A stretch of DNA of 64,000 nucleotides from Caldilineaceae bacterium. Its GTDB lineage: Bacteria; Chloroflexota; Anaerolineae; Caldilineales; Caldilineaceae. Positions 16,431 through 60,565 of the stretch are shown piece by piece. The stretch spans positions 1 to 64,000 of the forward strand of contig DAOUCA010000171.1 of the NCBI GenBank assembly GCA_034432375.1. Direction: 5' to 3'. Below the pieces are notes generated by a model. That model did no database searches. It had not been told where the DNA came from and was given only the letters and a program-made list of their open reading frames with translations. The translations under genes and the position numbers were made by a program. Numbering within the stretch: position 1 is the stretch's first letter; each line of letters starts with the position of its first letter.

Positions 16431-16464
16431 CATGCGCGTACGGAGCGGCGGAAGTGAGTACGTC

Positions 16465-16503: not shown

Positions 16504-16532
16504 ACTCTTCTGTTGGTTCAAACTGCCGACTA

Positions 16533-38775: not shown

Positions 38776-38803
38776 CAAGATGAAGGGATGACCGGATGAC
38801 AAG

Positions 38804-38928
38804 ATGATACTGTTGGCCTTGCTTACGGAACACCTTACGCCCCACTGGGATACTGTCATTCCTGCGCAGGCAGGAATCCATTGTACAGGAGTGACATAGC
38901 CAGATTGTAAGGCAGTGCAACAGTATCA
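38804..38928. mobile_element. Degenerate MITE copy (left TIR TGATACTGTTGGCCTTGCTTAC, right end GTAAGGCAGTGCAACAGTATCA) enclosing a REP hairpin
   Basis: Its termini resemble those of the intact copies at 39036, 48608 and 55941. It is flanked by CAAGA/CCAGA. Confidence 0.45.
38855..38878. repeat. REP-like hairpin GTCATTCCTGCGCAGGCAGGAATC (single copy)
   Basis: Identical to the units at 26-49 and 60501-60524. Confidence 0.7.
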
Positions 38929-39035
38929 CCAGATGACTGGATGATCGGTTTATCGATGCTCTCGGTGACACCCGATACTTATAATCGTTTTAGGCGACCA
39001 AGTATTGGCAATCACGCGGTCACCCCTTCATCTTG

Positions 39036-39182
39036 TGACACTGTTGGCCTACCTTACGGAGTGGGATTAAAATCCCCTCCTAATACTGAGAAGTCGCCTC
39101 AGCGACTAGACTAGCGCCTGCAGGTGCTTCTCGTTGTTAGGGCAGGGTTTCAATCCTGTCTTAAGGTAGGCCAACTGTATCA
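39036..39182. mobile_element. MITE copy (147 bp) with 22-bp terminal inverted repeats TGACACTGTTGGCCTACCTTAC / TTAAGGTAGGCCAACTGTATCA and a 5-bp TSD TCTTG
   Basis: TIRs and flanking direct repeat read directly. It is inserted into a GACAAGATGA decamer satellite. Confidence 0.65.
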
Positions 39183-39263
39183 TCTTGTCATCTTGTCCTT
39201 CAGTCATCGTGTCATCTTATCCTCCCTTCATTCTCTTAAACTCAGCACGAAACGAAAACGAGT

Positions 39264-40139
39264 ATGACCAAACGTCTACGGGATTGCAGCGTTACCGTGA
39301 TTGGCCTCGGCCTCATGGGGGCAAGCCTTTGCCTTGATTTAAAAAAGGGAGCGCTCTGTCGCGAGGTGCGAGGGGTAGCACGGCGTACGGCGACTGTGCT
39401 GGAAGCGTTCTTTGCCGAGGCCGTTGATCTCGCCACCAACGATCCACACACCGGTGTTCTGGGCGCGGATATGGTGATTCTGGCGACGCCCGTGCGCACG
39501 ATTGTCAGTATGCTTGAGGAGATCGCACCCTATTTGCAACCCGGTACCGTTGTGATGGATATGGGCAGCACCAAGGCTGAAATTTGCGCGGCGATGGAGC
39601 ACCTGCCACCCGGCATCCAGCCGATTGGGGGCCACCCGATGTGTGGCAAAGAGACCGCCGGTTTTGAATCCGCCGAGACGGGGCTCTACCAGCGGGCGCC
39701 GTGGGTCTTGACGCCGCTGCCGCGCACCGGTGGGAGTGCCATTGCATTGGCAACTGAGTTAGCCGAAGCGGTCGGTGCACGGCCTTATGTCTTGGAAGCG
39801 GCGCGCCACGACCGGTTGGTGGCCAGCATTAGTCATTTACCTTTTCTACTCGCCAGTGCCCTTGTCCACGCCGTTGCTACAGTGGGCCAAGAGGATGAAG
39901 TCGTTTGGCAATTGGCGGCTGGCGGCTTTCGCGATACAAGTCGGGTCGCGGCCAGTGACACGCGTATGTTTATGGATATTCTCATGACCAATCGCAGCGC
40001 GGTGCTGGAACAGTTGGAGAGCTTTGCCGGGCAGGTTGATGAGTTGCGCAAGCTATTATACAACGGCGATGAGGAACAGCTGCGGGCAAAGTTGATGGTT
40101 TCGCAGGAGCAGCGGGCACGATGGAAGCAGCATAAATAA
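39264..40139 (+). CDS. tyrA: Prephenate/arogenate dehydrogenase
   Basis: N-terminal NAD-binding motif [13 protein letters not shown]; PDH domain. Confidence 0.85.
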
Positions 40140-40170
40140 TCAATAATCAATTGCTAATAATCAATTTTTA
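40134..40170. repeat. AT-rich CAATTG-centred palindromic motif (AATAATC..AATAATCAATTG) at the upstream edge of the four-helix-bundle gene; its inverted partner is at 40584-40602
   Basis: The revcomp of CAATTGATTATTGATTATT (40584-40602) is AATAATCAATAATCAATTG. The core ATAATCAATTGATTAT is a perfect palindrome. Confidence 0.6.
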
Positions 40171-40194
40171 ATGAATGCACAGGAGGCCCCCCGA

Positions 40195-40569
40195 ATGGCT
40201 AAAGGTGATGACATTTTAGAACGATTGATCGATTTTGCTGTGCGGATTATCAATGTTTGCAATCATTTACTAGCATCACCGGGAGGTAAACATATTGCAA
40301 ACCAATGGATGCGTAGCGGAACATCACCGGCACCTAATTATGCGGAAGCACGCAGTGCGGAGAGCAAGCGCGATTTTGTTCATAAACTCAAAATCTGTCT
40401 CAAGGCACTTAACGAAGCTGAAGTATGGCTACAGATCACCCAACGTAGCAATTTACTTGATAAAACGCAACTTACCGCAATTGTTGATGAGTGTAATCAA
40501 CTCTGCCGCATCATCAACGCCAGCATTAAAACTTCGCTGGCTACACCAAGTGCCGGTGAACACGGTTAA
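40195..40569 (+). CDS. Four-helix-bundle protein (TIGR02436 / 23S rRNA intervening-sequence protein family)
   Basis: I trimmed the start to the ATG at 40195, which has a perfect AGGAGG RBS. The family signature is ...NYAEARSAESKRDFVHKLKICLKALNEAEVWL.... It is bracketed by inverted AT-rich repeats. Confidence 0.75.
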   Translation: MAKGDDILERLIDFAVRIINVCNHLLASPGGKHIANQWMRSGTSPAPNYAEARSAESKRDFVHKLKICLKALNEAEVWLQITQRSNLLDKTQLTAIVDECNQLCRIINASIKTSLATPSAGEHG

Positions 40570-40618
40570 CAATTAAATATTAACAATTGATTATTGATTA
40601 TTCCAAAGGCTCTGATCC

Positions 40619-41929
40619 ATGACAACAATTAACCTAACTAGTGGCTCCCCCCTCACCGGCCAGTGTTCCGTCCCCGGTGACAAATCGATCAGCCACCGCG
40701 CGGTGATCTTTGGCAGCATTGCCGAGGGACAGACGACGGTGCGCAATTTTCTCGATGGCCACGACTGTCGGGCGACCGTTGCCGTCATGCGCGCGCTGGG
40801 CGTGGAGATCGAGGTGCCCACGCCCACGGAACTGGTGGTCCATGGACGGGGCATTGATGGACTACAAGAGCCCGCCGATGTCCTCAACTGCGCCAATTCT
40901 GGGACGACGATTCGCCTGCTGACCGGTCTGCTGGCCGGGCAACAGTTTCCTAGCTTCCTCAGTGGCACGGCGCAGCTGCGCCGTCGCCCGATGAATCGCG
41001 TTATCAATCCCCTGCGCGGCATGGGGGCCGATATCATGGGTCGTCAGAATGGCAACTATGCGCCACTTGGGATTCGCCCGGCGCGGCTGCGCAGTGTTGA
41101 ATATGAGATGCCAATGGCCAGTGCGCAGGTCAAGAGCTGTGTTCTGCTGGCCGGCATGTATGCCAAGGGCTTAACGATTATTCGTGAGCCGGGACCAACG
41201 CGTGACCATACCGAACGTCTGTTGCGAGCGATGGGCGCGCCGATTGACGTAATCGGTCACACCGTACACACCGAGCGTCCGACTAGCCCACTGCGGGGGA
41301 TCGAGGTCACCGTGCCCGGTGATATTTCATCGGCTGCCTTTTTGCTGGTTGCCGGCGCGATTGTGCCCGATAGCCGGATCACGATTGCCGGCGTCGGTGT
41401 TAACCCGACACGCACCGGGATTGTCGATGCCTTGCTGCAGATGGGGGCACAGATTACCTTTCACAATCAGCGCGAGCAGGCGGGCGAACCAGTGGCCGAT
41501 CTGGAAGTACGTTACAGCGAACTACGGGCGGCAACCTTTGGCGGCCCTGGCATTGTGACAATGATCGACGAGTTAATGGTGTTGGCCGTGGCCGCAACCC
41601 AAGCCAAAGGGCGAACTATTGTGAGAGATGCCGCCGAGTTACGCGTCAAGGAGACCGACCGCATTGCGTCGACGGTGGGCGAACTGCGCAAGATGGGGGC
41701 TAAGATCGAGCCGACGAGCGATGGCTTTATCATTGATGGACCGACCGAACTCAAGGGCGCGCCGGTCGAGAGTCAGGGCGATCATCGGCTGGCGATGGCG
41801 CTGGCCGTGGCGGGGTTGGTGGGCCAAGGCGAAACGACGATTTACGCCAGCGAAGTCACAGCGGACAGCTTCCCTGGGTTTGAAGTCACGTTACAGGCGT
41901 TGGGCGCAACGCTAAAGGTAGAGGAATAA
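40619..41929 (+). CDS. aroA: 3-phosphoshikimate 1-carboxyvinyltransferase (EPSP synthase)
   Basis: SVPGDKSISHRAVIFG..., LxxGxxGTxxR. Confidence 0.9.
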   Translation: MTTINLTSGSPLTGQCSVPGDKSISHRAVIFGSIAEGQTTVRNFLDGHDCRATVAVMRALGVEIEVPTPTELVVHGRGIDGLQEPADVLNCANSGTTIRLLTGLLAGQQFPSFLSGTAQLRRRPMNRVINPLRGMGADIMGRQNGNYAPLGIRPARLRSVEYEMPMASAQVKSCVLLAGMYAKGLTIIREPGPTRDHTERLLRAMGAPIDVIGHTVHTERPTSPLRGIEVTVPGDISSAAFLLVAGAIVPDSRITIAGVGVNPTRTGIVDALLQMGAQITFHNQREQAGEPVADLEVRYSELRAATFGGPGIVTMIDELMVLAVAATQAKGRTIVRDAAELRVKETDRIASTVGELRKMGAKIEPTSDGFIIDGPTELKGAPVESQGDHRLAMALAVAGLVGQGETTIYASEVTADSFPGFEVTLQALGATLKVEE

Positions 41930-41932
41930 CCG

Positions 41933-42808
41933 ATGGAGCTTACAGGAAAAACACAAATTGTTGGGGTGATTGGCTGGCCGGTGAGCCACAGCATCAGCCC
42001 GCCGATGCATAACGCAGCATTTCAAAAAATGGGGTTGGACTGGTGTTATATTCCCCTGCCCGTCTCGGCCACGAAACCAGAAACCGTCGGTGACGCCGTG
42101 TGCGGTCTGCCCGCGTTGGGCTTACGCGGGGCCAATGTCACCGTACCTCACAAGCAAACGGTGATTGAGCATTTGGATTGGTTAACCCCGGCCGCCCAAG
42201 CGATCGGCGCAGTCAACACGATTCGCGTCGAAGCCGATGGCACGCTCTCCGGCGACAACACGGATGCCCGTGGCTTTATCGCCGATCTGCGCGAACATGA
42301 GGTTGTATTGGCAGGAACGCGGGTTGTCGTCTTGGGGGCGGGCGGTTCAGCACGGGCGATTGTCTTTGGGCTGGCCGAGGCGGGGTGTGCATCGGTGGCG
42401 ATCCTCAATCGTACCGTGCAAAAGGCGCATGATCTGGCAATGGACATACGCGCCTTCTTTCCCTTCTGCCGCATCTCCGGCCACGCGCCCAAGGATCTAG
42501 CGTTCATGGCGAGCGAGGCAACCTTGATCGTCAACTGTACTTCGTTGGGGATGACGCCCCATGTGGAGACGACGCCGTGGGAGGAAGCGGTGGCGTTTCG
42601 TCCGGAACAGGTGGTCTATGATCTGGTCTACAATCCGCCACAGACGCGGCTGTTGCAAAAGGCGGCAGCGGATGGCGCGACGGCGATCAACGGGCTGGGC
42701 ATGTTGATCTGGCAGGGCGCGATTGCCTTTGAGCGCTGGACGGGACAGTTGCCGCCCGTTGATATAATGCGCACTGCGGTGGAAGCGATCTTTGCGCAGA
42801 GAAAGTAG
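41933..42808 (+). CDS. aroE: Shikimate dehydrogenase
   Basis: IGWPVSHSISPPMHN, and NVTVPHK. Confidence 0.9.
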   Translation: MELTGKTQIVGVIGWPVSHSISPPMHNAAFQKMGLDWCYIPLPVSATKPETVGDAVCGLPALGLRGANVTVPHKQTVIEHLDWLTPAAQAIGAVNTIRVEADGTLSGDNTDARGFIADLREHEVVLAGTRVVVLGAGGSARAIVFGLAEAGCASVAILNRTVQKAHDLAMDIRAFFPFCRISGHAPKDLAFMASEATLIVNCTSLGMTPHVETTPWEEAVAFRPEQVVYDLVYNPPQTRLLQKAAADGATAINGLGMLIWQGAIAFERWTGQLPPVDIMRTAVEAIFAQRK

Positions 42809-42826
42809 CGTATAGGGAGGTAACGC

Positions 42827-43303
42827 ATGGCAAAGGTACGTGAAGCAACAGTTGCTGATGCGGCGCTCATCTCAATGTTGAATGCCGATGTGCAAAAGCG
42901 CCACGCTGATGCATTGCCACATATTTTTAAACAGCCGTCGGCTGATACATTTCCACCAGCGACCATTGTCGAGCTGATAGCAGATCCCCGCCATCGCTTC
43001 TTCCTGGCCATGATTGATGAGGAAGCAGTCGGCTATGTTTGGGCCGAAATCCGTCATCGACCAGAAGATGGTGCGCTATTTGCGCGCAACACCATCATGG
43101 TTCACCATATTTCCGTTAAACCGATGCATCAGCACAATGGGCATGGTGAACGATTGTTGGCGGCGGTGAAAGGATTGGCACAAGAAGCGGGGATTGCGAC
43201 GATTCAGCTTGATACTTGGTCTTTCAACGCCGAAGCACAGCGATTTTTTAAACGCCAGGGATTTTCAATTTTCAACTATCGTCTATGGACGGAGGTGGCA
43301 TGA
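42827..43303 (+). CDS. GNAT-family N-acetyltransferase
   Basis: Acetyl-CoA motif ...HQHNGHGERLLAAV...; ~158 aa. Confidence 0.75.
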   Translation: MAKVREATVADAALISMLNADVQKRHADALPHIFKQPSADTFPPATIVELIADPRHRFFLAMIDEEAVGYVWAEIRHRPEDGALFARNTIMVHHISVKPMHQHNGHGERLLAAVKGLAQEAGIATIQLDTWSFNAEAQRFFKRQGFSIFNYRLWTEVA

Positions 43304-43529
43304 TCTACCAGCAGGAATGCAATCCCAGATCCTTTGCCTGTGGTATCATACACTTGCCACCAAATATGGCGAACCCAACCGTCTCCGTGCCTATGCCGTA
43401 ATCGCCAGCGGCTTTGACCGGCTCCTTTGGCGGGAGGCATTGGTGAGTTGAACATTTATCGCTCTGCGGGCTTCACCCAGAGGGTATCCGCTTTGCGAGA
43501 ACTACCCTTAACCAAACTGAGGACTTTTC

Positions 43530-44780
43530 ATGACTGAACCCACAACCAAACCCAAAACCAACTACAACGCCATGCCCGATGAGAGCGGCCACTTTGGCCC
43601 CTATGGCGGCAAATTTGTGCCAGAAACTTTGATGCCAGCGCTCGATGAACTGGAAGAAGCCTATCTCCAAGCGCGCAATGACAAATCATTTATGGAGGAG
43701 CTCGCTTACCTCCAACGCACCTTTATCGGTCGTCCCACACCGGTGACCTATGCGAAACGGCTCAGCGAACATCTGGGCGGCGCGCAGATCTATCTCAAGC
43801 GCGAGGATCTCGCCCACACCGGTGCGCACAAGATCAACAATGCACTCGGCCAGGCGCTGCTGATGAAGCGCAAGATGGGCAAAACGCGCATTGTTGCCGA
43901 GACGGGGGCCGGCCAACATGGCGTGGCGACGGCAACGGTCGCGGCGTGGCTGGGCATGGAGTGTGTCGTTTACATGGGCACCGTGGACATGGCGCGCCAA
44001 CAGCCAAATGTCTTCCGTATGCGCCTGCTCGGCACCGAAGTGCGCGGCGTTGAGAGTGGCAGCAAGACGCTCAAAGACGCCATCAACGAGGCGATTCGCG
44101 ATTGGGTCACCAACGTGCACGACACCCACTATCTACTTGGCAGTGTCCTCGGCCCACACCCCTACCCGGCGATGGTACGCGATTTCCAGAGCATCATCGG
44201 CTGCGAAGCGGTCTACCAGATGCGTGATCACGAAGATGGCCCCGGTCGGCTACCGGATGCGATCGTTGCCTGTGTCGGCGGTGGCAGCAATGCGATTGGC
44301 ATCTTTCACTCCTTCCTCGAATTTGAGCAGGTACGCCTAATCGGCGTTGAGGCCGGTGGCCACGGCATCGAAGGGGGCGAACATGCGGCCCGTTTCGCCG
44401 ATCCCAAGATAGGGCGAATTGGCGTCTTGCAGGGCACCAAGAGTTATGTGCTGCAAGATGAAGATGGCCAAATTGCCCTCACCCACAGCATCAGCGCCGG
44501 TCTCGATTATGCCAGCGTCGGTCCCGAACATGCCTGGCTACGCGACCTGGAGCGAACCGAATATACCTACGCCACCGATGACGAGGCGATGGCAGGCTTT
44601 CAGTTGCTCTGTCGATTAGAGGGGATCATCCCGGCGTTGGAGAGCTCGCACGCGATTGCCCATGCCATGAAGCTGGCACCAACGATGGGGAAGGATCAGA
44701 TTTTGCTGGTCAATTTGAGCGGGCGCGGCGATAAGGATCTGAATACGGTGATGGATGTGCTTGGGAATAATCAATTGTAA
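43530..44780 (+). CDS. trpB: Tryptophan synthase beta chain
   Basis: [13 protein letters not shown] (PLP-lysine), GGGSNAIG. Confidence 0.9.
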
Positions 44781-44862
44781 ATTGACAATGGTTAATGCCT
44801 GCCATTCCCAATGCACAAAGCGCGGTTGAAACTTGAAAATTAGCAATTGATTATTGATTATT
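44767..44862. repeat. Inverted AT-rich repeats AATAATCAATTG (44767-44778, overlapping the last trpB codons) and CAATTGATTATTGATTATT (44844-44862) enclosing a 65-bp spacer between trpB and trpA
   Basis: Same motif as the one flanking the four-helix-bundle gene. Confidence 0.6.
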
Positions 44863-44872
44863 GGAGCTGACA

Positions 44873-45676
44873 ATGACCGGACTGGAGCGCATCAGCGCCG
44901 TCTTTACGAAAGCAAAACAGGAAAAACGGGCCGCCTTTATGCCCTATCATGCGATGGGCTATCCCAACCGCGCCATGACATTGGAGATGATCAAGGCCTT
45001 AGCCGACTCAGGCGCGGATCTCTTTGAGATCGGTCTGCCGCACAGCGATCCACTGGCGGATGGGCCGACGGTCCAAACGGCAACCTATACGGCCATCACC
45101 AATGGCACCACGGTCAAGGATTGCCTCGCCATGATGCGGGAGTTGCGCGCTGCTGGTGTGGATACCCCCTTCTGCGCCATGACCTATTACAACCCGCTCT
45201 TTGCCTATGGGATTACAAAGTTTGTTGAAGATGCGGTGATTGCGGGGGTTGATGGATTGATCGTGCCCGATCTGCCGCCGGAAGAGGCCGAGGAGATCCT
45301 TGCGACCTGCCAAGAGGCCGGATTGGCGACCATTTTCATGTTGGCACCAACCAGCACAGAAGAACGAATCAAGTTGATCGCCCGGCACGCCACTGGCTTT
45401 ATCTACCTTGTTAGCGTCACAGGCGTGACGGGTGCTCGTACCGAATTACCATCTGATCTAAAGCACTTCGTCCAACGCGTGCGCAAGCAGACCAATCTGC
45501 CGCTGGCGATTGGCTTTGGTATCGGCACCGCTGCACAGGCCGCCGAAGTGAGCGAAATTGCCGATGGAGTGATTGTCGGGTCGGCGTTGGTGAAGGCGGC
45601 AGGGAGCGCCGAGGGCGTGGCCGCTGTGCGGGCGTTGGGGGCCGAGTTAGCGGCAGGGGCGCATCGGGCGAGTTAG
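44873..45676 (+). CDS. trpA: Tryptophan synthase alpha chain
   Basis: I trimmed the start to the ATG at 44873 ([11 protein letters not shown]...); the ORF track starts at a TTG at 44861. TrpA motifs are present ([14 protein letters not shown]). Confidence 0.9.
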
Positions 45677-45748
45677 GACAAGATGAGGGGATGGCAAGAT
45701 GACAAAATATAATACACTCATCTTGTCTTCCTGTCATCCTGTCGAGCC

Positions 45749-47398
45749 CTACCCAGCGCGCACCACCGGACGCAGCTTCAGCGCAAATTGCAACGAAAAG
45801 CGCGCATCGGGATCGTCGAGATCCAACTGCGTGATCGTCGAGATCTGCTCTAGCCGGTAGGTAAGGGTGTTGCGGTGGATGTGAAGTTTGCTGGCGGTTT
45901 GGCTCAAGTTGCCGTGGCATTCAAAGAAGGCTTCGAGCGTCTGCACCAACTCGGCATTTTTGCTGTCATCATAGTTGAGGAGCCGGCCAAGCGTCTTGCG
46001 ATAGAAGCGCGCAGCCTCGTTGCTGTTGCCCAGCGTCGTCAGCAGTTGATAGAGGCCTAGATCGCCAAAATAGGTGACGGGTGCGCCCTTCCATTCCTTG
46101 CCCAGTCGCCAGCTTTCGCGTGCCTGTTGCTGGCTTTGCAGCCAGGTATTGGGCGAGACCCCCGGACGTCCAATGCCGATGATCACTTGCGCTTTTGGAT
46201 ATTGCGCCTGAATCTTGTCGGCGAGTGTGTTGGCAAGCCCTTTGAGATCACGTCCACTTTTGGGGTTATCGGTCGGCCAGAAGAGCAAAATGCCTTCGTC
46301 GCGTCGGCTCATGGGGACATTGACGGCTTGCTCCTTGACAAATCGAGTCAAAACCGCCGGCCATTCGGAAACATTTTTCGCTTCCACCATCCACGCCACG
46401 TGGGGTTTGGTCAGATCATAGCTGAGCGATGCCCCACGCTGAATCCAGGCCTGTTCATCGGCAATTTCTGAGGCCAACAACTCATCCACAAAGGCCGCCC
46501 GCATCCGCTCTTCAGCCATGCCAACGGCATTTAACTTAGCCCATTCCAAGGCCGCCGATGCAGCTCCCTGGCTAACGGCGATCTCTTCAACAGCGCTAAC
46601 TCCCTGGTTGACCGCGGCTTGTGGCCGTAGCAGCAAGCAGTAGCCGCGGATCGACTCCATGGCCATAATGGGTGTCACCACCGCTTGTGCAAAGCCTGCT
46701 GGGGCGCTGCCCCCATTGAGCAAAAGCGTCCCCACCATTTTGTTGAGCATTGTAACCGGCTGTGATGCCGCCCAACTACGCAACGTGGTCACATTGGGGA
46801 GACCATTAAGCAAGGCTTGGCGACGACTTTCCGGCAACTGTTCCAGCCCACTGTGGGTCGCAATTTGGCCATCTTCGCGCAAGAGAATCAACGGCTGCTG
46901 CACAAAATCGGCAATGTGTTCCGCAATCCGAAAAATACCACCCCCATCGAGCGCAATCTGGTTGAGTTCATGCTGTAGTTCCGCCGAACGTTGCGTAATG
47001 TAGCCGGCGCGATCGACAATCAGCCGAATGATCGCGCGCTCAGTCTGGACAAGCGGCGATGCGCTTGTTAGTTGAAAGAGGGCAATACGACTAGATTGGG
47101 CAACCTTAATGGTTTCATCTTCTACCTGACCCAAGACAGCAATTGCCGCAATACGGGCACTTTCCAAGCTGCGCACGACACGCGACAACGGCATTTTGGG
47201 ATCCAGCCGTCGTAACTCATCCATATCAATCAGGGCGATCTCGTTGCCATCTAATTTGGGGAAGGCGGGTGGGCTAGGGCGCAGACTACAAGCCCAACTA
47301 ACAGTGCGGTCAAGCAAATTCTCACCAACCAGCAATTTACTATCAGCCGGCAACGCTAAACGGTATATATCATCAAGTGTAACAGAGCTTTTGTACAT
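45749..47398 (-). CDS. PucR/CdaR-family transcriptional regulator (C-terminal PucR HTH)
   Basis: The C-terminal HTH is ASKLHIHRNTLTYRLEQI. I propose the ATG at 47398; the ORF track begins at a TTG at 47437. Confidence 0.7.
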   Translation of the reverse strand: MYKSSVTLDDIYRLALPADSKLLVGENLLDRTVSWACSLRPSPPAFPKLDGNEIALIDMDELRRLDPKMPLSRVVRSLESARIAAIAVLGQVEDETIKVAQSSRIALFQLTSASPLVQTERAIIRLIVDRAGYITQRSAELQHELNQIALDGGGIFRIAEHIADFVQQPLILLREDGQIATHSGLEQLPESRRQALLNGLPNVTTLRSWAASQPVTMLNKMVGTLLLNGGSAPAGFAQAVVTPIMAMESIRGYCLLLRPQAAVNQGVSAVEEIAVSQGAASAALEWAKLNAVGMAEERMRAAFVDELLASEIADEQAWIQRGASLSYDLTKPHVAWMVEAKNVSEWPAVLTRFVKEQAVNVPMSRRDEGILLFWPTDNPKSGRDLKGLANTLADKIQAQYPKAQVIIGIGRPGVSPNTWLQSQQQARESWRLGKEWKGAPVTYFGDLGLYQLLTTLGNSNEAARFYRKTLGRLLNYDDSKNAELVQTLEAFFECHGNLSQTASKLHIHRNTLTYRLEQISTITQLDLDDPDARFSLQFALKLRPVVRAG

Positions 47399-47718
47399 AT
47401 TGCCTAACTTACTAAACTTATTGTACAAATGTGTCAAAAGGGATTACGAATTTGCAGCAAGATGACACAGTGTAATCGCCAATTTGTGAATGTTCGTTAA
47501 TTCTGCCACCGCGAATCGTCTGAAAGCTGTATAAATAGGAGAAACAATGTACAGTCGATCCAACTATCAAGTCAATAGTATACACAATCTTTCCAAACTT
47601 GCGCAATTTCTCACAAGCGTGTTGTGCAACTTACACAAAAAGAGCAGTCCGCACCTTGGTTGAAATTATCTGCAGAGGTTTCGGAAAAGATAGATCAGCG
47701 GGCCATCCGCGCCCAATT

Positions 47719-47751
47719 AAAAAAGCGCGTGAGTTGACTCACGCGCTTTTC
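47719..47751. terminator. Bidirectional intrinsic terminator (AAAAA-AGCGCGTGAG-TTGA-CTCACGCGCT-TTTT)
   Basis: A 10-bp stem with A-tract and T-tract flanks. It lies downstream of membrane-protein gene 47858-48340. Confidence 0.75.
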
Positions 47752-47857
47752 TAAGAGACGGTAACCGTCATATCATGGCATATGGTGTTGCTACGACGGA
47801 TAATAGAAGTGGTTACAGCCTAATTAAACATGGGCAATTTCAAGGAAGAACAGTCGC

Positions 47858-48340
47858 TCAGTACTTTGCCCACGAGGTCATAATCGCAGCACAAGCACCC
47901 GCCCAAACCGCAAACAAGAGAATAAACCCAGCGGTAAACCAACTCGGATCCTGTCCCATGGTTGATGCCATTGCAAAAAAGACGGCGAAGCCAATAATCA
48001 GCGCAATGATGTTGCCAAGGAAGAGCTTGCCAATCGATTGGCTGCGGGTCAGTGCACCGACGAGTACCGGCCACAAGATGATGCCAATCACAGGGATCGC
48101 CCCAATAATCCCGCCGATCATACCGCCGATGCTACCGCCAATGCGCCCCGTGGCAAAGGCATAGCCCAACACTGGGCCGGCACCCGTCAAGAGCAGGGCC
48201 ACAACAAAGGGCACCAACTGATCCGATTGGAGGAAGAAACTTGCCGCATAGGCGATCACCGCGGTTAAGATGCCTGCATACACCGACGCTAGCCAAGGGT
48301 TACCCGACCGCGTTGCACTCATGGTTGTCAAGGGAATCAT
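47858..48340 (-). CDS. Small Gly-rich polytopic membrane protein (160 aa)
   Basis: ATG at 48340 with the RBS AGGAGAG. Four hydrophobic helices with GxxxG-rich segments. Confidence 0.7.
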   Translation of the reverse strand: MIPLTTMSATRSGNPWLASVYAGILTAVIAYAASFFLQSDQLVPFVVALLLTGAGPVLGYAFATGRIGGSIGGMIGGIIGAIPVIGIILWPVLVGALTRSQSIGKLFLGNIIALIIGFAVFFAMASTMGQDPSWFTAGFILLFAVWAGACAAIMTSWAKY

Positions 48341-48607
48341 TATTCTCTCCTATTGCGCTAATTTGTGTCCCCGATTACTGTGAAATCAATCGACCGTAAC
48401 CGCTTTAGACTCTTCAATAAAACGGCAGCTAGACAGTAACAGGCTCATTGATACACACAGTTGGCAGATGGGGTTAAATCACATGAAGGTTTCTAAATAA
48501 GATATACCATAAGAAGATAGAAACTGCAACCGAGGAATTGGGAGATAGGGAGATAGGGTGACTAGGTGACTAGGTGATAGACACGAACTTGTCTCCCTTT
48601 CACCCTG

Positions 48608-48914
48608 TGATGCTGTTGGCCTACCTTACAACAGGGTTAAAACCCTGCTCTATACTCAAATCAGAATGAAACCCCTAGTTTCGGCCAGCGTGCGTCGCAC
48701 TGACGGAAGCATCTAGCGGACTGGAAGCCGTTGGCGGTCAGTGCCACGCACGCGATCCCGTTGGTCCGCAAAACTCCGGTTCTCATTCTGAACGCAGTAT
48801 AACAACGACAAGCGCGCCCAAAGGGCACCCGCGGCGCTTCCCAGCCGCTGAGGCGGCTTCTCGCTGTCAGGAGGGGATTTAAATCCCACTCCGTAAGGTA
48901 GGCCAACAGTATCA
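48608..48914. mobile_element. Full-length MITE copy (307 bp) with 22-bp TIRs TGATGCTGTTGGCCTACCTTAC / GTAAGGTAGGCCAACAGTATCA and a 5-bp TSD CCCTG
   Basis: It has internal sub-terminal palindromes (CAGGGTTAAAACCCTG; GGGGATTTAAATCCC). The 55941 copy is an internal-deletion derivative. Confidence 0.7.
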
Positions 48915-48923
48915 CCCTGTCAC

Positions 48924-49361
48924 CTACCCACCCGGCAACTCGTCCCACTCGGCAAAGCTCCAGCCTTCGATCATCAGGTACATTTGTGGTTGGTGCTGTC
49001 GACTGAGCACAAAGACAAGCGCATCTTCTTCATCGACCGCAACTTCATCGAGCCACAGCTCTTGTTTAACGAGTTTGGTCAGCTGCTGTTGGATTGTCTG
49101 AAATCCGACCAACGGCTCTTGCGTTGGATCGGAAAAGCAGAGTACGCCATAAAGCTCAAAGTAAATGCCCCCATCTAAATAGAGATCCATGTCGACAGCA
49201 CTCTGTGTTGTCGGGTCGGTGGGAGTGCCTTCAAGGGTGTCCTGCAACACCTCTTCCCATATCTCCAGATGAACAATTTTCTGCCCCGCTAAATCGGCGA
49301 GTTCATCATACATTTCATCATCGACGATAGTGAAAAAATCAAAATCCTGATCGCGCGTCAT
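48924..49361 (-). CDS. Hypothetical acidic protein (145 aa)
   Basis: ORF only; no family recognised. Confidence 0.5.
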   Translation of the reverse strand: MTRDQDFDFFTIVDDEMYDELADLAGQKIVHLEIWEEVLQDTLEGTPTDPTTQSAVDMDLYLDGGIYFELYGVLCFSDPTQEPLVGFQTIQQQLTKLVKQELWLDEVAVDEEDALVFVLSRQHQPQMYLMIEGWSFAEWDELPGG

Positions 49362-49362
49362 C

Positions 49363-50466
49363 TTACTCCGATTCCTCTATTCGTTCTGGTTTCGCTTCGG
49401 GTGGCCCCATCACAATCATGCGCGTGGGGATAGTTGTCGGGAGCTCAAAGAATTGGCCACCGGCGTGAAAATGGCTGAACTTTACCGGCAACCCCTGATC
49501 AATAAAGGGATTTGGCCCTTCCATTAGATGGAAGTGGAGATGGGGCCCTGGCGAATTGCCACTGTTGCCCACCCGCCCAATCAGGGTACCGCGCCGGATC
49601 ATCTCGCCTTCGTTGACGGCAATACTCAGCTGTTGCAGCGTGCCATAGTAGCTGAATTCCCCATTGGCATGGCTAATGGCAACGGCATTGCCCAAGAGAC
49701 GCCGCGGATCCTCACGAAACATGCGCTCATCCGGTGGGATCCCTGGCTGAATATCCGGCATATCATAGGTAACGTAGGCGACTTTACCGCCAGCCGTCGC
49801 ATAAACGGGTTGATCCCAACTATAGTGATCCTCGACGGTCAACCCACCGTTGTGAAAAAATTGATTATCCGGCCCCAGCTTGACGAAATCCATGGCATAG
49901 GTCTGGCTAAAGACCTCCTGCTTGTGTAGGTCACTCCAATCCGAACCATTAATCGCCCACCAGGACCCGCGCAGAGGGAAGTACAGATCCGTTTTATTAT
50001 CATAGACCGTTACCGGCATCTGCAAAACGGTCTGGGTGGTCTGCCCGCGCTCGTCGTCGGCACTTTCCCCCCTACCAACGACCGTCACTTCAACCATCGT
50101 CAAGGGTTCATAGCCGTGGATTATAAAGTGTAGCGCGCGTACCGCTAGCCCTGTCCCCACGGGAATCCGCAGATCGGCCTCGCCCGTCCGTTGGCGAATA
50201 ATGCGGGCGGGCCAACGCTGCTCAAAGAGCAACTGATGCTCATTGTAGCCTTTGACGACCAGGCCAGAAAGCTCCACGGGCCCATTCATCGCTGTGATCC
50301 CCACGTCAAAGACAACTTCTTGGATTGGCCCCAGATTGGGGAAAGGCAATCGGCTGTAGCGGGCCGCGATCAGACGCTGTGGTCGGCTTTCCGCGCGCAG
50401 ATAGGGTTGGGTTGTTTGCGAGGTAGACTCTTCATTGGTCGGTTCTTCATTGGTGGCTACAGTCAC
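49363..50466 (-). CDS. M23-family metallopeptidase (LytM-like)
   Basis: HxxxD and HxH motifs ([12 protein letters not shown]). Confidence 0.8.
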
Positions 50467-50489
50467 TGCTTCATCCTGTCTAATGTATG

Positions 50490-51650
50490 CTATCGTCCTT
50501 GGCGAATTTGGTGGCTCAAGGGGAGACGATCCGCCATAAAGTCCAAAAAAATCTGCCGCTCGGCAGTACGTTCGTGCCGGCGATTGGGATGTTCACCACC
50601 AGTGAGGCCGTGCATCAGCGTTAGCAAAGCGAACGCCTCCGCTGGTGCCACTCGGTAATAACTCTCTTCCGTCTCCAGGCTATCGAGCCGCTCCCAGCGA
50701 TCAACCCAGTTGTTGAGATAGAGCGAGTAACAGTTACGGCAGCGCCAGATGCTAAAGGTCTGTTTATCGTCTTCAACGGTAGCAACGGTCAATGCCCCAA
50801 GATTGGCAATCCGCCCCTGGCAGGCAAAGCAGCTCTCCGTGCCAGCCCCCATGCCGCTGCGCTCGACCAAAAGCGCTGCCCAGTCAATCATCGCATGTGC
50901 ACTTTGTGTCTCGCCACCCTTGCGGTCACGGCGCACTTGCTGCCGCCGCAGAAAACGCCGCCAGAGCCGCCGCGCAAGCGAAAATCTGATCTCCGCCTCT
51001 TCGGCGGCGCGACGCATCGGTGCTGCCGCTAGTGCTGTCGTTACACTCGTCTTTGCCGACGAGTTCACCGCCCTTGTCGGCACTTGCCAATGGCGACATG
51101 GAAGCGCCAACTGGGATTGGCTCGACAGTAAAGGTGGCAGTTCTTCTGTGTCAGGCGCCTCTATGCCAGGATTCGCCGCACGCCACCCGCAGCGCCCTGT
51201 CGATAATTGATCGGGATTGATCCCACCCAGCGGTTGCCAGAAGTGACAACTCCCACAAGCGCGGAGCCGATAGTCTTTTTCCTGCAACTGAGTCTGTAGT
51301 TGCCGTTGAAAGATCGCTGGTTCTGGATCAACGGCCAGATCAAAGAGTGGCTCCGTCGTCGCTAGCTCATCACCGCTACTCAATAAATAGCCTACACAGC
51401 GGTGGGAACCTTCTGGCCACAACAGCTGTATCCACGTCCGTAGGGCCCCAATTTCGGCGGATCTGTCAACCAGTGATTGCACTTGAATCCGTTGGAAGAT
51501 TTGCGTGCGCGTTCCGGGAAAGATCCCCGACATCGTCGCCAGATTAAAGGGCTGTCGTGCCTCTTGCGCTTTCGGTTCCCCGCGTTTCGGTTCACTGCTT
51601 TTCGGTTCACCGCGTTGTGGCGTCGTTCGCTTATTGGCCATTCGCCTCAT
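50490..51650 (-). CDS. Hypothetical Cys-rich protein (386 aa) with zinc-ribbon-like CxxC pairs
   Basis: CFACQG...CRNC and CGSC motifs; no family recognised. Confidence 0.5.
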
Positions 51651-52998
51651 TGAGCAGGATTGTTGTCTCTGTCACCGCCTGCGCTGGATTCTCGTCGGCA
51701 TCAAGCACTTTGATCAACAGGTCGCCGGCATAGCCCCACACCGTGTCCATTTGGGGCAAAGTGGGGAAAGATTGGGCGTTGCTCCCTTGTGCTACAAAGC
51801 CTTGCAACAGTGGATTGGTCAGCGTTACCGTGCGATTGGCCGGCAAGCGGTTGGCATATTGTGCTAGTGCCATGCCACTCTCGGCACTGGTAAAATGACG
51901 AGCCAACAGCAGCGCCAGCCACTGTTGTTCTGGCTCGAGATTGGGATTTAAAAAGATGCCATCGGCACTAAGCCACGGTTGCGCATTGGCCACGGGGCCA
52001 GCCGGCAGTTGCGTTACGGCCAGATCATCGCCGAGCGCGCCTTGCAACTCGCCAATGCTCCACGGACCATCGACCAGAAAGGCAAATTCACCCTTTTTAA
52101 AGCGGTCGAGCAACATGCCATAGTCGCTGTCAACATAGGTGCCATCGACTTGATTTAAGGCCGCCAGCCAGCTTAAATAGTCGGCGGCCCCACTGCCCTG
52201 ATCGAGAATGGCACGACCGTTGGCGTCTAATAATTGTGCGCCATAGGCCGGGAAGCCCCAATAGAGATGATAAAGCGTCGTGTAGAGTCCAATGCCAGTT
52301 TGGCGATTGGCTTGGGCAAGGCGCAGCAGATCGGCAGTCGTCGCCGGCAGTGCGGTCTCGCCAATCAACGATCGGTTGTAGAAAAGCGCAACCAGCTCGA
52401 AATTGGTTGGCAGCCCGTACAATTTGCCGTTCCAGCGCAAATTATCGAGCGTAGCCGGCCAAAAGTCATCCAACAGCGCTGGATCCAACAGACCATTCGC
52501 GATCAGTTCATCAAAAGATTGGACCACACCGGCATCCACCATCTCGCCCAGCCACCAGTTCGGTGCCAGAATCAGATCCGGCCCGGCGTTACTCTGAACG
52601 GCATCGGCATAACTTTGTGGCAGATCGTTATAGGCAACATAAAGCGTATCGACCTTGAGTTGCGGATATTGCTCGGCAAAGGTTAGCAAAATGGTGGCTA
52701 GCGCGTCACCATCGCCTTCGGCCCAACTGTGCCAGAGCGTGAGCGTGCCAACCGGGTCGGGCGTTGGCGTGGCCGTGGGAGCCGCCGGTTGGTTGGCGGC
52801 TGGTTGGTTAGCCGCAGACTCGCCTACCGGAGCGGCGTTGGCCACCGCAGGGGCAGGAACGACAGTCGCCGTGGGCGTTGGCGTATCGCGATTGCAGCCG
52901 GCCACCAACAAGAGAGAACTTAGCCCCAGCAGAAGGAAGACGCATCTAAGCAGAGAGACTTGCTCTCGACAAATGGGTGATTGCAGCATTGATTTCAT
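51631..52998 (-). CDS. ABC-transporter extracellular solute-binding lipoprotein (family 1, carbohydrate type)
   Basis: Lipobox LLLVAGC and a Pro/Thr linker precede the SBP_bac_1-like body. Confidence 0.8.
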   Translation of the reverse strand: MKSMLQSPICREQVSLLRCVFLLLGLSSLLLVAGCNRDTPTPTATVVPAPAVANAAPVGESAANQPAANQPAAPTATPTPDPVGTLTLWHSWAEGDGDALATILLTFAEQYPQLKVDTLYVAYNDLPQSYADAVQSNAGPDLILAPNWWLGEMVDAGVVQSFDELIANGLLDPALLDDFWPATLDNLRWNGKLYGLPTNFELVALFYNRSLIGETALPATTADLLRLAQANRQTGIGLYTTLYHLYWGFPAYGAQLLDANGRAILDQGSGAADYLSWLAALNQVDGTYVDSDYGMLLDRFKKGEFAFLVDGPWSIGELQGALGDDLAVTQLPAGPVANAQPWLSADGIFLNPNLEPEQQWLALLLARHFTSAESGMALAQYANRLPANRTVTLTNPLLQGFVAQGSNAQSFPTLPQMDTVWGYAGDLLIKVLDADENPAQAVTETTILLNEANGQ

Positions 52999-53010
52999 AG
53001 CAGGTCCTAA

Positions 53011-53442
53011 TTACTCGGCAAGGCGGTCGAGCAGCGCTTGCAGCCCCAATAGATAGCTGCGCCAGCCAAAGCCACAGATCTGCCCCACACAGACGGGGGC
53101 CAATACCGAAGTGTGGCGGAATTCCTCGCGCTGGTGGATATTACTCAGGTGCACTTCGACCGTCGGCAGCTTGACAGCGCTGATCGCATCACGAATCGCG
53201 TATGAATAGTGGGTGTAGGCACCGGGGTTGATCAGAATGCCATCCGCCCAATCGCGCGCTTCGTGCATAAAATCGATCAGCGCGCCTTCATAGTTGCTCT
53301 GTAAGAAACGCAACTCATGGTCGCCGGCCGCGGCCAACAACGCTTCCTCGATTTTGGCCAAGGTCATGCTGCCGTAAATATGGGTTTCACGAGTGCCCAA
53401 TAGGTTGAGATTGGGTCCGTGGAGAACTGCGATTACACTCAC
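53011..53442 (-). CDS. aroQ: 3-dehydroquinate dehydratase, type II
   Basis: I trimmed the start to the GTG at 53442, which is 5 nt after a perfect GGAGGAA RBS. The product begins (M)[15 protein letters not shown] and contains INPGAYTH; the ORF track runs to 53613. Confidence 0.85.
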
Positions 53443-53723
53443 AAAAGTTCCTCCGTCATAGTAAAAATGCCTGCGTCTCGCCATAGGTGAGAGCGTTGCC
53501 TTCCAGCGTGTTAGAATGATAGTTCCAGTCAAGTCGGAACTTCTGCAGAATCCGCAACTCCTGCTCGCGGTCAATGGGGCGGAGGGCACTGATGGCGACT
53601 TTTGGGTTGTCAATGCACTGTAGAATTGCTACAATATCCACAGTTTACTTTCCAGCGAACGTACAAGCCGATGTCAATAGGAAGACAAGAGCTGCGCCAA
53701 CGTGCAATGGATGAATTCGCATC

Positions 53724-55355
53724 TTACACCAATATTTTTCCCAACGCCGCCTCGACATAGCCCCACCCTGGATTATCGATGATCACGACGTCGCCCACCG
53801 CTTGCGGGACAATAAAACGAATCGTCTTGCCGACGCGCTTCTTGTCATGGCCCATCGCCGCGATGATCGCCTCAGCATCGTAGCCGGTCAATTGTACCGG
53901 CAGACCGACCCGTTCCAGCACATTGCGCACTCGCCCGATCAACGCCGGATCACACTGTTCGAGCGCCGCCGCCATCTCGGTTGCGGCAACCATGCCCAGC
54001 GCGACCCCTTCGCCGTGGCGCACGGCAAAGTTGCTCACCAACTCGATGGCGTGGCCAAAGGTGTGGCCCAAATTGAGGGTGGCGCGACGTCCCTCTTCAA
54101 AGGGATCTTCTTCGACTACCTCCACTTTAACACGCACCGCCTCAGCGACCAGGTGGACCAGATTAGTCGGCCCCTCTTCTTCAAATTGGCGGAAAAGCTC
54201 GGGCGCGCCGATGATGCCATGTTTGATCACCTCGGCTAGACCGGAGCGAAATTCGGCGGCGGGCAGCGTACTGAGTACGGCCGTATCAATAATCACCAGA
54301 CTCGGCTGCTTGAAAGCCCCCACTAAATTCTTACCTTGCGGCAGATCGACGCCCGTCTTGCCCCCCACCGAGGCGTCGACCATGGAGAGCAACGTTGTGG
54401 GGATCTGCACAAAGGGTACACCGCGTAGATAGGACGCAGCGGCAAAGCCAGCCATGTCGCCAATCACGCCACCACCCAGCGAAATGACGGGGCTTTTGCG
54501 GTCGAGCCCGGCGGCCAGGAATTGATCATAAAGGCTGGCGATGCTGGCAAGTGTCTTGTGTTGCTCCCCTTCCGGTACGGTGCAGACCGTCGGCGTAAAA
54601 CCGGCAGCCCGTAGACTGGTGGCGAGCATCTCGGCATGGTCAGGAGGGATCTGTGGATTGGTGACAATCACCGCCGGCCCTTGACGTAGCCCGCGATTGG
54701 CCAGCAAGCGCCCCGCCTCTTGCAGCAACCCTTCGCCGATGCAAATGTGATAGCTGCCCTCCGGCCCGCGTACGGGAATGCGCGTCATGTTGGCAACTTC
54801 AGCATCGCCGGCCAATGTCTCCAAAATGCGTTCAACGACCTCTTCCGTCAAGAGGCCGGTGGTGTCGATCTGGTGGGCAATAGCCCCATAGGCTGGCCGG
54901 CGTTCGCGCAACAAGGTGCGCACCCGTTGCTCCTGTTCAGTCTTCGCGGTGTTGAGCAAGGGTCGTTCGCCGGTATCGGCCACGCGCCGCAGGATCTCAT
55001 CGGGCGTAGCGGTCAGGCAGAGAATCGCCCCCGTCTTGGCAAAGGTTCCGCGGTTCTGCGCGCTGACAAGCGCGCCACCGCCCGTGCTGATGACACAGCC
55101 TTGGCGTTCCGCCAGTTGGGCACAAAGGGCAGCTTCCGTCGTGCGGAAGATCGCTTCGCCCTCTTGGGTGAAGACCTCACGGATCGGTTTGCCAAAATGC
55201 GCGACCAACTCGTCATCCATATCGATAAAGGGGCGGTTGAGTCGTTCAGCCAACAGACGGCCCGTACTCGTCTTGCCGGTCGCCATGAAGCCGGTGAGGA
55301 TAATATTTTTTTCGGCGGGGATTGCTAAGGAACTATTGGTCTGGCATGCTTGCAT
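53724..55355 (-). CDS. aroKB: Bifunctional shikimate kinase / 3-dehydroquinate synthase fusion
   Basis: N-terminal P-loop GFMATGKTSTG (shikimate kinase); C-terminal DHQS domain (GGGVIGDMAGFAA). Confidence 0.9.
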   Translation of the reverse strand: MQACQTNSSLAIPAEKNIILTGFMATGKTSTGRLLAERLNRPFIDMDDELVAHFGKPIREVFTQEGEAIFRTTEAALCAQLAERQGCVISTGGGALVSAQNRGTFAKTGAILCLTATPDEILRRVADTGERPLLNTAKTEQEQRVRTLLRERRPAYGAIAHQIDTTGLLTEEVVERILETLAGDAEVANMTRIPVRGPEGSYHICIGEGLLQEAGRLLANRGLRQGPAVIVTNPQIPPDHAEMLATSLRAAGFTPTVCTVPEGEQHKTLASIASLYDQFLAAGLDRKSPVISLGGGVIGDMAGFAAASYLRGVPFVQIPTTLLSMVDASVGGKTGVDLPQGKNLVGAFKQPSLVIIDTAVLSTLPAAEFRSGLAEVIKHGIIGAPELFRQFEEEGPTNLVHLVAEAVRVKVEVVEEDPFEEGRRATLNLGHTFGHAIELVSNFAVRHGEGVALGMVAATEMAAALEQCDPALIGRVRNVLERVGLPVQLTGYDAEAIIAAMGHDKKRVGKTIRFIVPQAVGDVVIIDNPGWGYVEAALGKILV

Positions 55356-55372
55356 AAAATCTTCTACTCACT

Positions 55373-55903
55373 TTAAACATTTGATAATTTACGCTGTACA
55401 ATTTGTACGAGGAGTTCCAATGGCTCTTCAGTATTCACCAGCAGATGCTGTTCCGGCTCAATTGGGTAACGCCAACACCCATTATACTTGTTCAAGTGTG
55501 CCTGCATTGCATCCCACCCACGAATTTTGTGGGTCGATTCTGCAGGTGAGCGCTCTTCCAGCCGTTGCCGCCAAATCGTTTCAGCGAGTTGCGTTTCCAC
55601 CACCAACAACCGTGCGCCATGTTCGGCAACCAACGCCTGTGCTTTGGCGTACAGCGTCGGGTAGGCAAAAGGGGAATCGACCATCACGCTAACACCCAGC
55701 CGCAATTGGGTCGCCACCATCTGCCACAAAATCGCATAGGCGAGATCATTCTCATGGGGCAGACCAAGTGTATGATCTTTTATATCATCTTTGTCCAGCA
55801 AAGGCCACTTTAGCGACCGCGCAAGGGCGGTTGCCAGCGTGCTCTTGCCTGTGGCAGGGTGACCTTTCATGGCGATGAGGTAGGTGGATGTTGGGTCGGA
55901 CAT
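55373..55903 (-). CDS. P-loop kinase / AAA-family ATP-binding protein (176 aa)
   Basis: Walker A motif GHPATGKST. It sits between aroC and aroKB. Confidence 0.7.
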   Translation of the reverse strand: MSDPTSTYLIAMKGHPATGKSTLATALARSLKWPLLDKDDIKDHTLGLPHENDLAYAILWQMVATQLRLGVSVMVDSPFAYPTLYAKAQALVAEHGARLLVVETQLAETIWRQRLEERSPAESTHKIRGWDAMQAHLNKYNGCWRYPIEPEQHLLVNTEEPLELLVQIVQRKLSNV

Positions 55904-55940
55904 GCAATCTTCTCAAGGTGTAAAGGACAAGATGACAAGA

Positions 55941-56098
55941 TGATGCTGTTGGCCTACCTTACAACAGGGTTAAAACCCTGCTCTAACAACGACAAGCGCG
56001 CCCAAAGGGCACCCGAGGCGCTTCCCAGCCGCTGAGGCGGCTTCTCGCTGTCAGGAGGGGATTTAAATCCCACTCCGTAAGGTAGGCCAACAGTATCA
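55941..56098. mobile_element. Short MITE copy (158 bp, internal deletion) with the same 22-bp TIRs and a 5-bp TSD CAAGA
   Basis: TIRs read directly. It is inserted in a GACAAGATGA satellite between the P-loop gene and aroC. Confidence 0.7.
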
Positions 56099-56202
56099 CA
56101 AGATGACAAGATGACACTGTTGGCGAAATCAAGGAGGCGGCGGCTGCGCTCCCTTGTCGAAGTAACTAACAGGATCATCTTGTCACCTTGCCATCATGCC
56201 AT

Positions 56203-60250: not shown

Positions 60251-60433
60251 TAAACACTCGGGTAGGAGTAACGAAGTTCTGCTAGATTAGCATATCCCTC
60301 CCAGCCTCCTCCAGTTTGGGGGAGGAGCCGTTGATGTCGCTGATGGCGTCACAGTTTCCTCCCCCGGCTGGAGAGACAACCTATCATTACTTGTGTGACA
60401 CTGTACTATACGCAAGTCAACTTCAAAACCGGC

Positions 60434-60487
60434 GTTTCTGACAGGAGTGTCTGACAGGCGTTTCTGACAGGAGTGTCTGACAGGAGT
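60434..60487. repeat. 4 x 13-bp tandem repeat (GTCTGACAGGAGT-like)
   Basis: Read directly. Confidence 0.7.
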
Positions 60488-60500
60488 GAAGGTGTACCCT

Positions 60501-60565
60501 GTCATTCCTGCGTAGGCAGGAATCCCAGCTGACAACCGATGGATTCCTGCCTACGCAGGAATGAC
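60501..60565. repeat. REP-like hairpin pair in inverted orientation (same unit as at 26-94)
   Basis: GTCATTCCTGCGTAGGCAGGAATC ... GGATTCCTGCCTACGCAGGAATGAC. Confidence 0.7.

Follow-up and report, generated by a model that had tools for sequence, protein, structure and literature searches.

The gene cluster and its elements

The stretch of DNA examined here, 64,000 nucleotides from a Caldilineaceae bacterium (GenBank assembly GCA_034432375.1, contig DAOUCA010000171.1), is called the window below, and all element coordinates refer to it. The names of the closest AroKB homologs agree with an origin from the Caldilineaceae. It contains an aromatic amino acid gene cluster with two DAHP synthases, a prephenate dehydrogenase, an aroK-aroB fusion, aroQ and aroC. 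Within this cluster lie several small sequences framed by terminal inverted repeats (TIRs) of 22 nt. They are described here as miniature inverted-repeat transposable elements (MITEs), which very probably owe their mobility to an insertion sequence (IS) of the IS1182 family. All the window elements are intergenic. They are hosted by the spacers separating the second DAHP synthase from the prephenate dehydrogenase, a 145-aa from a 160-aa open reading frame (ORF), and aroC from an AAA_33 gene. An earlier inspection of the letters of this DNA, hereafter the sequence-only reading, had stated that no gene is disrupted, and the gene positions around all copies agree with it.

The window was searched with the pattern TGATRCTGTTGGCCTACCTTAC, up to 3 mismatches being allowed. 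This yielded 8 matches, arranged as four inverted pairs, against 0.00 in dinucleotide shuffles, and they fall where the sequence-only reading had placed the TIRs. The pairs are located at 38805-26(+) and 38907-28(-), 39036-57(+) and 39161-82(-), 48608-29(+) and 48893-914(-), and 55941-62(+) and 56077-98(-), with 0-3 mismatches per TIR. The resulting elements, with their target-site duplications (TSDs), are the following.

55941..56098, plus strand: 158-bp MITE, used as reference, with end A at left and end B at right; TIRs TGATGCTGTTGGCCTACCTTAC and TGATACTGTTGGCCTACCTTAC; TSD CAAGA at 55936-40 and 56099-103
48608..48914, plus strand: 307-bp copy, a 158-bp MITE with a nested insertion; TSD CCCTG at 48603-07 and 48915-19
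48653..48799, plus strand: 147-bp element belonging to a second MITE family, nested in the 307-bp copy; its TIRs, TACTCAAATCAGAATGA and TACTGCGTTCAGAATGA, are imperfect; TA duplicated at 48651-52 and 48800-01
39036..39182, minus strand: 147-bp copy, a full-length homolog of the 158-bp MITE; TSD TCTTG at 39031-35 and 39183-87
38805..38928, plus strand: 124-bp TIR-bounded element, resembling the family at its ends alone; flanks CAAGA/CCAGA
56113..56180, plus strand: degenerate 68-bp TIR-like mini-element, TGACACTGTTGGCG...CTAACAGGATCA, in the centre of a hairpin module; flanks CAAGA/TCTTG, which are inverted and thus form no TSD

Direct reading of the flanks gives a TSD of 5 bp in 3/3 intact copies, all of them perfect pairs as previously described, and one of 4/5 identity in the 124-bp copy. 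The elements bounded by the 22-nt TIR have no coding capacity; the 307-bp copy is overlapped by one ORF only, a mechanical one of 95 aa with a GTG start. The window holds three homologous copies and two TIR-only elements within 17 kb. The sequence-only reading was right in counting four copies. It assigned them three sizes, where there are four (307, 158, 147 and 124 bp) in addition to the degenerate fifth element, and it started its degenerate copy at 38804, one base before the true end. A classification as TIR- and TSD-bounded non-autonomous transposons rather than genes for non-coding RNA (ncRNA) is supported by unfilled sites in congeners, by the Rfam results and by the unrelated interiors found between the same termini, all described below.

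In an independent assembly of the same DNA from short reads (Logan SRR10063241, L001), the sequence stops roughly 30 nt into the MITEs at both 48.9 and 55.9 kb, which is the expected behaviour of a repeat. In practice, the MITE repeats break short-read assemblies within the aromatic amino acid gene cluster.

Relations among the copies

Alignment of the 307-bp and 158-bp copies, also by BLAST, shows that their first 45 nt are 100% identical and that the remaining 115 nt agree at 99%, with 149 extra bases in between. A duplicated TA and a 147-bp segment, whose imperfect inverted ends are listed above, make up these bases. Such a TA-flanked interruption indicates that the 307-bp copy results from the nested insertion of a second MITE family into a 158-bp element, and the earlier view of the short copies as internal-deletion derivatives has to be abandoned. 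The 147-bp copy is 88-91% identical to the 158-bp MITE, from which it differs by one 11-bp internal deletion and by its opposite orientation. The 124-bp element has only about 25 nt per end in common with the family. Its unrelated interior holds a palindrome (38855-38881) resembling repetitive extragenic palindromes (REPs).

This REP-like palindrome, GTCATTCCTGCGCAGGCAGGAATCC, is also found elsewhere in the window, singly or as inverted pairs (25-49/68-94 and 60501-60525/60541-60565). The last pair belongs to a 231-bp relative of the nested 147-bp element, located at 60409-60639 with TA on both sides, which additionally contains a 13-bp tandem repeat (60437-60488). The TA/TA flanks and the imperfect TIRs of the TACTCAAATCAGAATGA type suggest a partner of the IS630/Tc1 type for this second family.

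A partner insertion sequence of the IS1182 family

At locus L002, the TIR of the first family is found directly 3' of an ORF of 557 aa. Against NF033551, 'IS1182 family transposase', the encoded protein reaches 339.6 bits, above the cut-off of 270, and it comprises the Pfam domains DUF772 (PF05598), DDE_Tnp_1 (PF01609) and DDE_Tnp_1_6 (PF13751). Both ends of the corresponding 1815-bp IS (L002/L007) could be read from contigs encoding the identical 557-aa protein, the left inverted repeat (IRL) being TGATACTGTTGGCCTATCTTAA and the right one (IRR) TGATACTGTTGGCCTACCTTAA. The IRR is identical to the MITE TIR at 21/22 positions, and the likeness runs on for a few bases (CAAC). The same 14-15-nt tip bounds the transposases P0002 and P0003, which are 71-74% identical. 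Related ends also enclose other interiors: a metagenome-assembled genome (MAG) of Litorilinea aerophila, another member of the Caldilineaceae, carries 217-bp MITEs with an IRL-type end and yet another interior, and a 372-bp element in L004 combines the same ends with a different interior.

In its exact type, the TIR has 0 matches among 185,579 GTDB species genomes. A relaxed pattern (17.5-nt-equivalent) gave 35 loci in the same set, about the number estimated by chance, and the genuine ones were three Litorilinea aerophila MAG contigs alone. A scan of metagenomes for the TIR returned 4 contigs, L002 among them, none with the 158-bp interior.

These results bear directly on the partner, for which the sequence-only reading had proposed an IS630/Tc1-like or an IS5-like element. 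The second guess came close, IS1182 transposases having IS5-type DDE domains, even if the family itself is IS1182. A classification of the 22-bp-TIR family as Tc1/IS630-type MITEs could appeal to the TA/TA flanks of the nested 147-bp element and of its 231-bp relative (60409-60639). The TSDs of the 22-bp-TIR family are nevertheless CCCTG, CAAGA and TCTTG, 5 bp and not TA, and it is with an IS1182-family IS that its termini (TGATACTGTTGGCC) agree at all but one of 22 positions. This classification has practically no chance of being correct.

Two further arrangements were observed around such ends. In L002 (2064-2933), a left TIR of the IS could not be recognised, and a second ORF, different but also resembling a transposase gene (MRPCKYLSADGLFSHIREG...), adjoins the IS, which was probably inserted into, or truncated by, another IS. 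In L005 (600-712), an inositol-monophosphatase-like gene takes its stop codon (CCG TAA GGT) from a solo B-type TIR adjoining its 3' end, and immediately after this TIR comes a hairpin of perfectly inverted 8-bp repeats.

Orthologous sites in related genomes

The corresponding loci of relatives were recovered via neighbouring proteins. Their DNA identity to the window is about 88% for L060, about 84% for L056 and L057 (one 24-kb NCBI contig, GCA_041736995.1), 77% for L054 and 74% for L055. Three sites are covered by this comparison, and the orthologous spacers of these relatives (L054/L055, L056/L057, L060) are without the elements.

The most precise case is the spacer between DAHP synthase and prephenate dehydrogenase, which measures 198 bp in L057 and 488 bp in the window. 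CAAGA occurs once at the L057 junction, which reads ...CCGGATGACAAGA^TGAAGGGGTGACC (CCGGATGACAAGA^TGAAGGGGTGACCGCG...); at the corresponding point of the window, either side has a CAAGA directly bordering on a TIR. Deleting both elements and one 5-mer from the window restores colinearity with L057. The single CAAGA at this exact empty site demonstrates that the 5-bp repeat is a true duplication.

At the 48.6-kb site, L060 and L056 possess a repeat module without a MITE; 97 bp separate the stop codon from the conserved spacer, as against 392 bp in the window. L060 reads TAG-GTGACAGGG-AGACAAGG..., and the window TAG-GTGACAGGG-MITE-CAGGG-TGAAAGGG-AGACAAG.... Once the MITE and one CAGGG are removed, the window has the same unit number as L060. 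In L054 and L055, the spacer at this site has neither MITE nor repeats. At the third site, the aroC-AAA_33 spacer measures 35 bp in L054, 47 bp in L055 and 299 bp in the window.

A different element was seen at the 55.9-kb site of L056 (1-126). It has the same 14-nt tip and an identical junction, ...AGCCAACAGTATCA|TCTTGTCATCTTGTCC. Its AT-rich interior is unrelated to the 158-bp MITE and starts an inward-reading ORF (MSIPVANTMADSHDDSLLAPFAQV...), and the contig ends 126 bp in.

The comparison with L057 also reveals a rearrangement between the two leftmost elements of the window.

38929..39035, no strand assigned: 107-bp spacer between two copies, inverted relative to L057 3490-3595 (93% identity on the opposite strand)

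The breakpoints of this inversion are exactly the MITE ends. It may have been caused by TIR-TIR recombination or by a transposase-mediated event. The copies on both sides share one end polarity, B-to-A, and two TSD pairings are equally good for them.

The unfilled sites also inform the alternative that the elements are structured ncRNA genes or cis-regulatory hairpins, for instance terminator or attenuator modules of the aro operons, with the 'TIRs' acting as a closing stem. The 158-nt element indeed folds very stably (-87 kcal/mol, z = -9.4); the sub-terminal palindromes of the sequence-only reading are confirmed, together with internal hairpins, and the copies all lie between co-directional genes. 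In one internal hairpin, a pair of bases differs between copies in a compensatory manner, AGCCGC...GCGGCT (56027-56043) against AGTCGC...GCGACT (39091-39107), a single case. Rfam gives 0 matches at the gathering threshold over the whole window, however, and over the elements at E <= 1 one chance-level match (E = 0.56). There is no terminator-like T-tract beyond chance, and a promoter/terminator scan of the 56-kb spacer found nothing exceeding chance. In addition, the elements are absent from orthologous spacers and flanked by 5-bp duplications, they occur in both orientations relative to the flanking genes, and the same termini bound a transposase gene as well as unrelated interiors. On the basis of these observations structured RNA, a very improbable explanation, is essentially excluded, and the elements are MITEs, as the sequence-only reading had maintained against the same alternative.

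Insertion into hairpin modules of 8-bp repeats

All window copies are embedded in tandem arrays of an 8-bp unit, N5+TGA or, on the other strand, N5+TCA (for example TGACAAGA, TGAAGGGA and TGACCGGA). The arrays form inverted pairs, composed of a purine-rich arm, a loop and a complementary arm, and the window copies are located in the arms or in the centre. As single-stranded DNA these modules fold as hairpins, with z-scores of -2.6 to -7.7. The relevant modules are the following.

38773..38804, plus strand: purine-rich arm, target of the 124-bp element; TGACAAGA TGAAGGGA TGACCGGA TGACAAGA
39183..39235, plus strand: complementary pyrimidine-rich arm, target of the 147-bp copy; TCTTG TCATCTTG TCCTTCAG TCATCGTG TCATCTTA ...
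48540..48607, plus strand: hairpin module hosting the 307-bp copy; GGGAGATA twice, GGTGACTA twice, loop, TGTCTCCCTTTCACCCTG; the arm continues at 48915-48935
55923..55940, plus strand: 8-bp repeats to the left of the 158-bp copy; GACAAGAT twice; matching right repeats at 56099-56112 and complementary arm at 56181-56203
45677..45743, no strand assigned: hairpin module without an element, formed by inverted 8-bp repeats; flanked by two convergent genes, trpA and a PucR-family gene; conserved in L056

Further modules free of MITEs are present at 12900-12997 and 16458-16510. At the place of the 45.7-kb module, the hairpins found in L054 and L055 are ordinary and unrelated.

The element tips (TGA...TCA) keep the register of the arrays in every case. 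The 'TSDs', too, lie in phase inside these hairpin-forming arrays, which the sequence-only reading had missed. When the genuine ends from the window and all loci are considered together, TGA or TCA occupies outward positions 6-8 at 24/31 ends, where about 3% would be expected by chance. The same trinucleotides are found at ends flanked by non-repetitive DNA. This bias points to a preferred target T(G/C)A-N5-T(G/C)A, of which N5 is duplicated. A longer TSD of 8 bp including the TGA was considered and rejected, TGA being present also beside non-array flanks and the right-hand tip being TCA, not TGA. An association with hairpins is seen in a more distant IS as well. In L059, a complete 8.08-Mb contig, an IS of 53% identity sits in the 4-nt loop of a hairpin with a 9-bp stem, and the loop is duplicated: GCGAGGAAA-TGAA-IS-TGAA-TTTCCTCGC.

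The array period, the TSD and the TIR tip are related by 8 = 5 + 3, which raises a testable possibility: the transposon may generate the very arrays that it targets. Each insertion would duplicate 5 bp and each excision would leave the 3-nt tip (TGA/TCA), adding one 8-bp unit per cycle, and the transposase would then prefer such units. What stays constant from unit to unit is the TIR tip, and no element end falls out of register with the arrays. Neighbouring units are often identical, and their number varies among congeners, with two occurrences of CCGGATGA in L057 and one in the window. Compared with L054 and L055, which have no TIR at all, the modules represent inserted sequence. Arrays of CAAGATGA units abut a 59%-identical IS in L058, a different Chloroflexota-like genome. 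(An assignment of L058 to a cyanobacterium, derived from one GCGATCGC, was rejected; the nearest named homologs of the neighbour gene are from Herpetosiphonaceae and Oscillochloridaceae.)

Replication slippage combined with a target preference accounts for the same facts, however. The strict polarity of the arrays, in which TGA always accompanies a purine-rich N5, and their inverted two-arm layout are not predicted by simple scars. A site with exactly one additional unit in one genome, at the position occupied by an element in another, was not encountered. Bacterial DDE elements are not known to leave excision footprints of this type, which also counts against such an origin of the arrays. Generation of the arrays by the element itself is therefore held to be unlikely, and the same holds for its corollary, which would make the hairpin modules long-standing scars or the remains of elements after extreme deletion. 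If true, it would describe a self-reinforcing system of transposon and tandem repeat, which would also seed new hairpins downstream of genes.

Proposed mechanism

The interpretation that we consider highly probable is that of MITEs mobilised in trans by an IS1182-family IS, with 5-bp staggered cuts at T(G/C)A-N5-T(G/C)A sites, abundant in pre-existing hairpin modules. The MITEs would have kept only the 22-bp TIRs of an IS of about 1.8 kb encoding one 557-aa DDE transposase. A full-length copy residing elsewhere in the source genome would supply this transposase, which would bind the MITE ends and move the element by cut-and-paste chemistry; integration with 5-bp staggered cuts would leave 5 bp duplicated. 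The preferred motif is dense in the arms of the intergenic modules, of the form (TGA N5)n ... (N5 TCA)n. Its concentration there would explain why the elements pile up between genes and leave these undisrupted; an effect of the insertions on aro gene expression may also be envisaged. Elements with common ends have later become nested, gained unrelated interiors and been associated with an inversion.

Several observations weigh against this interpretation. The window encodes no IS1182-family transposase detectable by tblastn with six transposases of this family (all E > 0.3), in agreement with the sequence-only reading, which had seen none. The matching IS is known from metagenome contigs alone, and the contigs with the closest transposases come, according to cluster and contig look-ups, from samples other than SRR10063241. 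The unfilled sites, which the sequence-only reading had suggested seeking in related strains, were found in other species (74-88% DNA identity). The number of repeat units in the arrays differs between these relatives, and an exact empty site is available for one junction only. At 38.8-39.2 kb the TSDs can be paired in two ways, the arms at this place being repetitive and mutually inverted. No clean 5-bp TSD surrounds the elements with both flanks in L004, L048, L016, L017 and L008. Possible causes are assemblies that are chimeric across repeats, rearrangements at a later time and, as in IS1272, TSDs that truly vary; the absence is treated as weak evidence since repeat-spanning contigs can be chimeric. 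Finally, the TSDs given for the IS1182 family in the papers cited here are of 0 bp (IS1272) or 4 bp (ISPse1 and the ISMac2 MITEs), as against 5 bp here; this is a new value for the family rather than a contradiction.

Other features of the window

Three further repeats were also recorded. The two DAHP synthase genes are tandem paralogs (36594-37664 and 37759-38775; D3/D12 repeats, about 73-75% DNA identity), and the pair is also present in L057. A large diverged duplication (D4, D6, D11) that includes WD40-repeat genes relates 12187-16423 to 20124-24513, about 8 kb apart, with 73-79% identity. A tandem array of 165-bp repeats lies inside a coding region at 17897-18870.

Comparison with known systems

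Targeting of intergenic palindromes is known from other transposase families. IS1397, ISKpn1 and elements of the IS110/IS1111 family target REPs and bacterial interspersed mosaic elements (BIMEs), so that they avoid genes. The window MITEs differ from these in transposase family and in their target, a degenerate 8-bp periodic array instead of a defined REP.

MITEs derived from an IS1182-family member have been described in an archaeon. The ISMac2-derived MITEs of Methanosarcina acetivorans measure 160-169 bp, with inverted repeats of 25-26 and direct repeats of 4 or 0 (PMC3852290). They have in common with the elements described here a small size, the lack of coding capacity, long TIRs taken from an IS1182-family IS, a short TSD and multiple copies. 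The present elements differ in being bacterial (Caldilineaceae), in their TSD of 5 bp, in an IS-derived part limited to about 22-28 terminal nt and in their insertion into 8-bp arrays.

Hairpin-directed integration is likewise a property of some members of this family. IS1272 and TnSha1 of staphylococci integrate at stem-loops, typically just downstream of genes, and tandem duplication of end sequences was reported for them (PMC5678879, PMC4923244). Palindromic targets for some IS1182 members are credited to Siguier et al. 2015 in passages of these two papers. Membership of the IS1182 family and stem-loop-directed integration are the common points with the window MITEs. IS1272 replaces the stem-loop and produces no TSD, whereas in the window the hairpin arms persist and 5 bp are duplicated. 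The targeting of hairpins or palindromes seen here is nonetheless a continuation of an IS1182-family habit. A short fixed TSD is also possible in this family, as illustrated by ISPse1 of Paracoccus seriniphilus (1653 bp, IR 16/16), which was trapped experimentally with a TSD of 4 bp (PMC3281130), the length also seen for the L059 IS. ISPse1 differs from the present system by this value, 4 bp instead of 5, and by having no reported association with MITEs or arrays.

The link between these MITEs and the IS1182 family matters in that the evidence for hairpin-directed integration has hitherto come mainly from staphylococci. The window also illustrates several routes of diversification, by nesting, by capture of unrelated interiors between TIR pairs and by an inversion bounded by element ends. 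With its exact ends, 5-bp TSD and T(G/C)A-N5-T(G/C)A target, this MITE family from a poorly studied phylum, the Chloroflexota, constitutes a natural data set for mechanistic work. MITEs, their derivation from IS1182-family members and the hairpin-directed integration of this family were already known; this family is a new member from a new host lineage, having a TSD of 5 bp and a remarkably regular periodic target.

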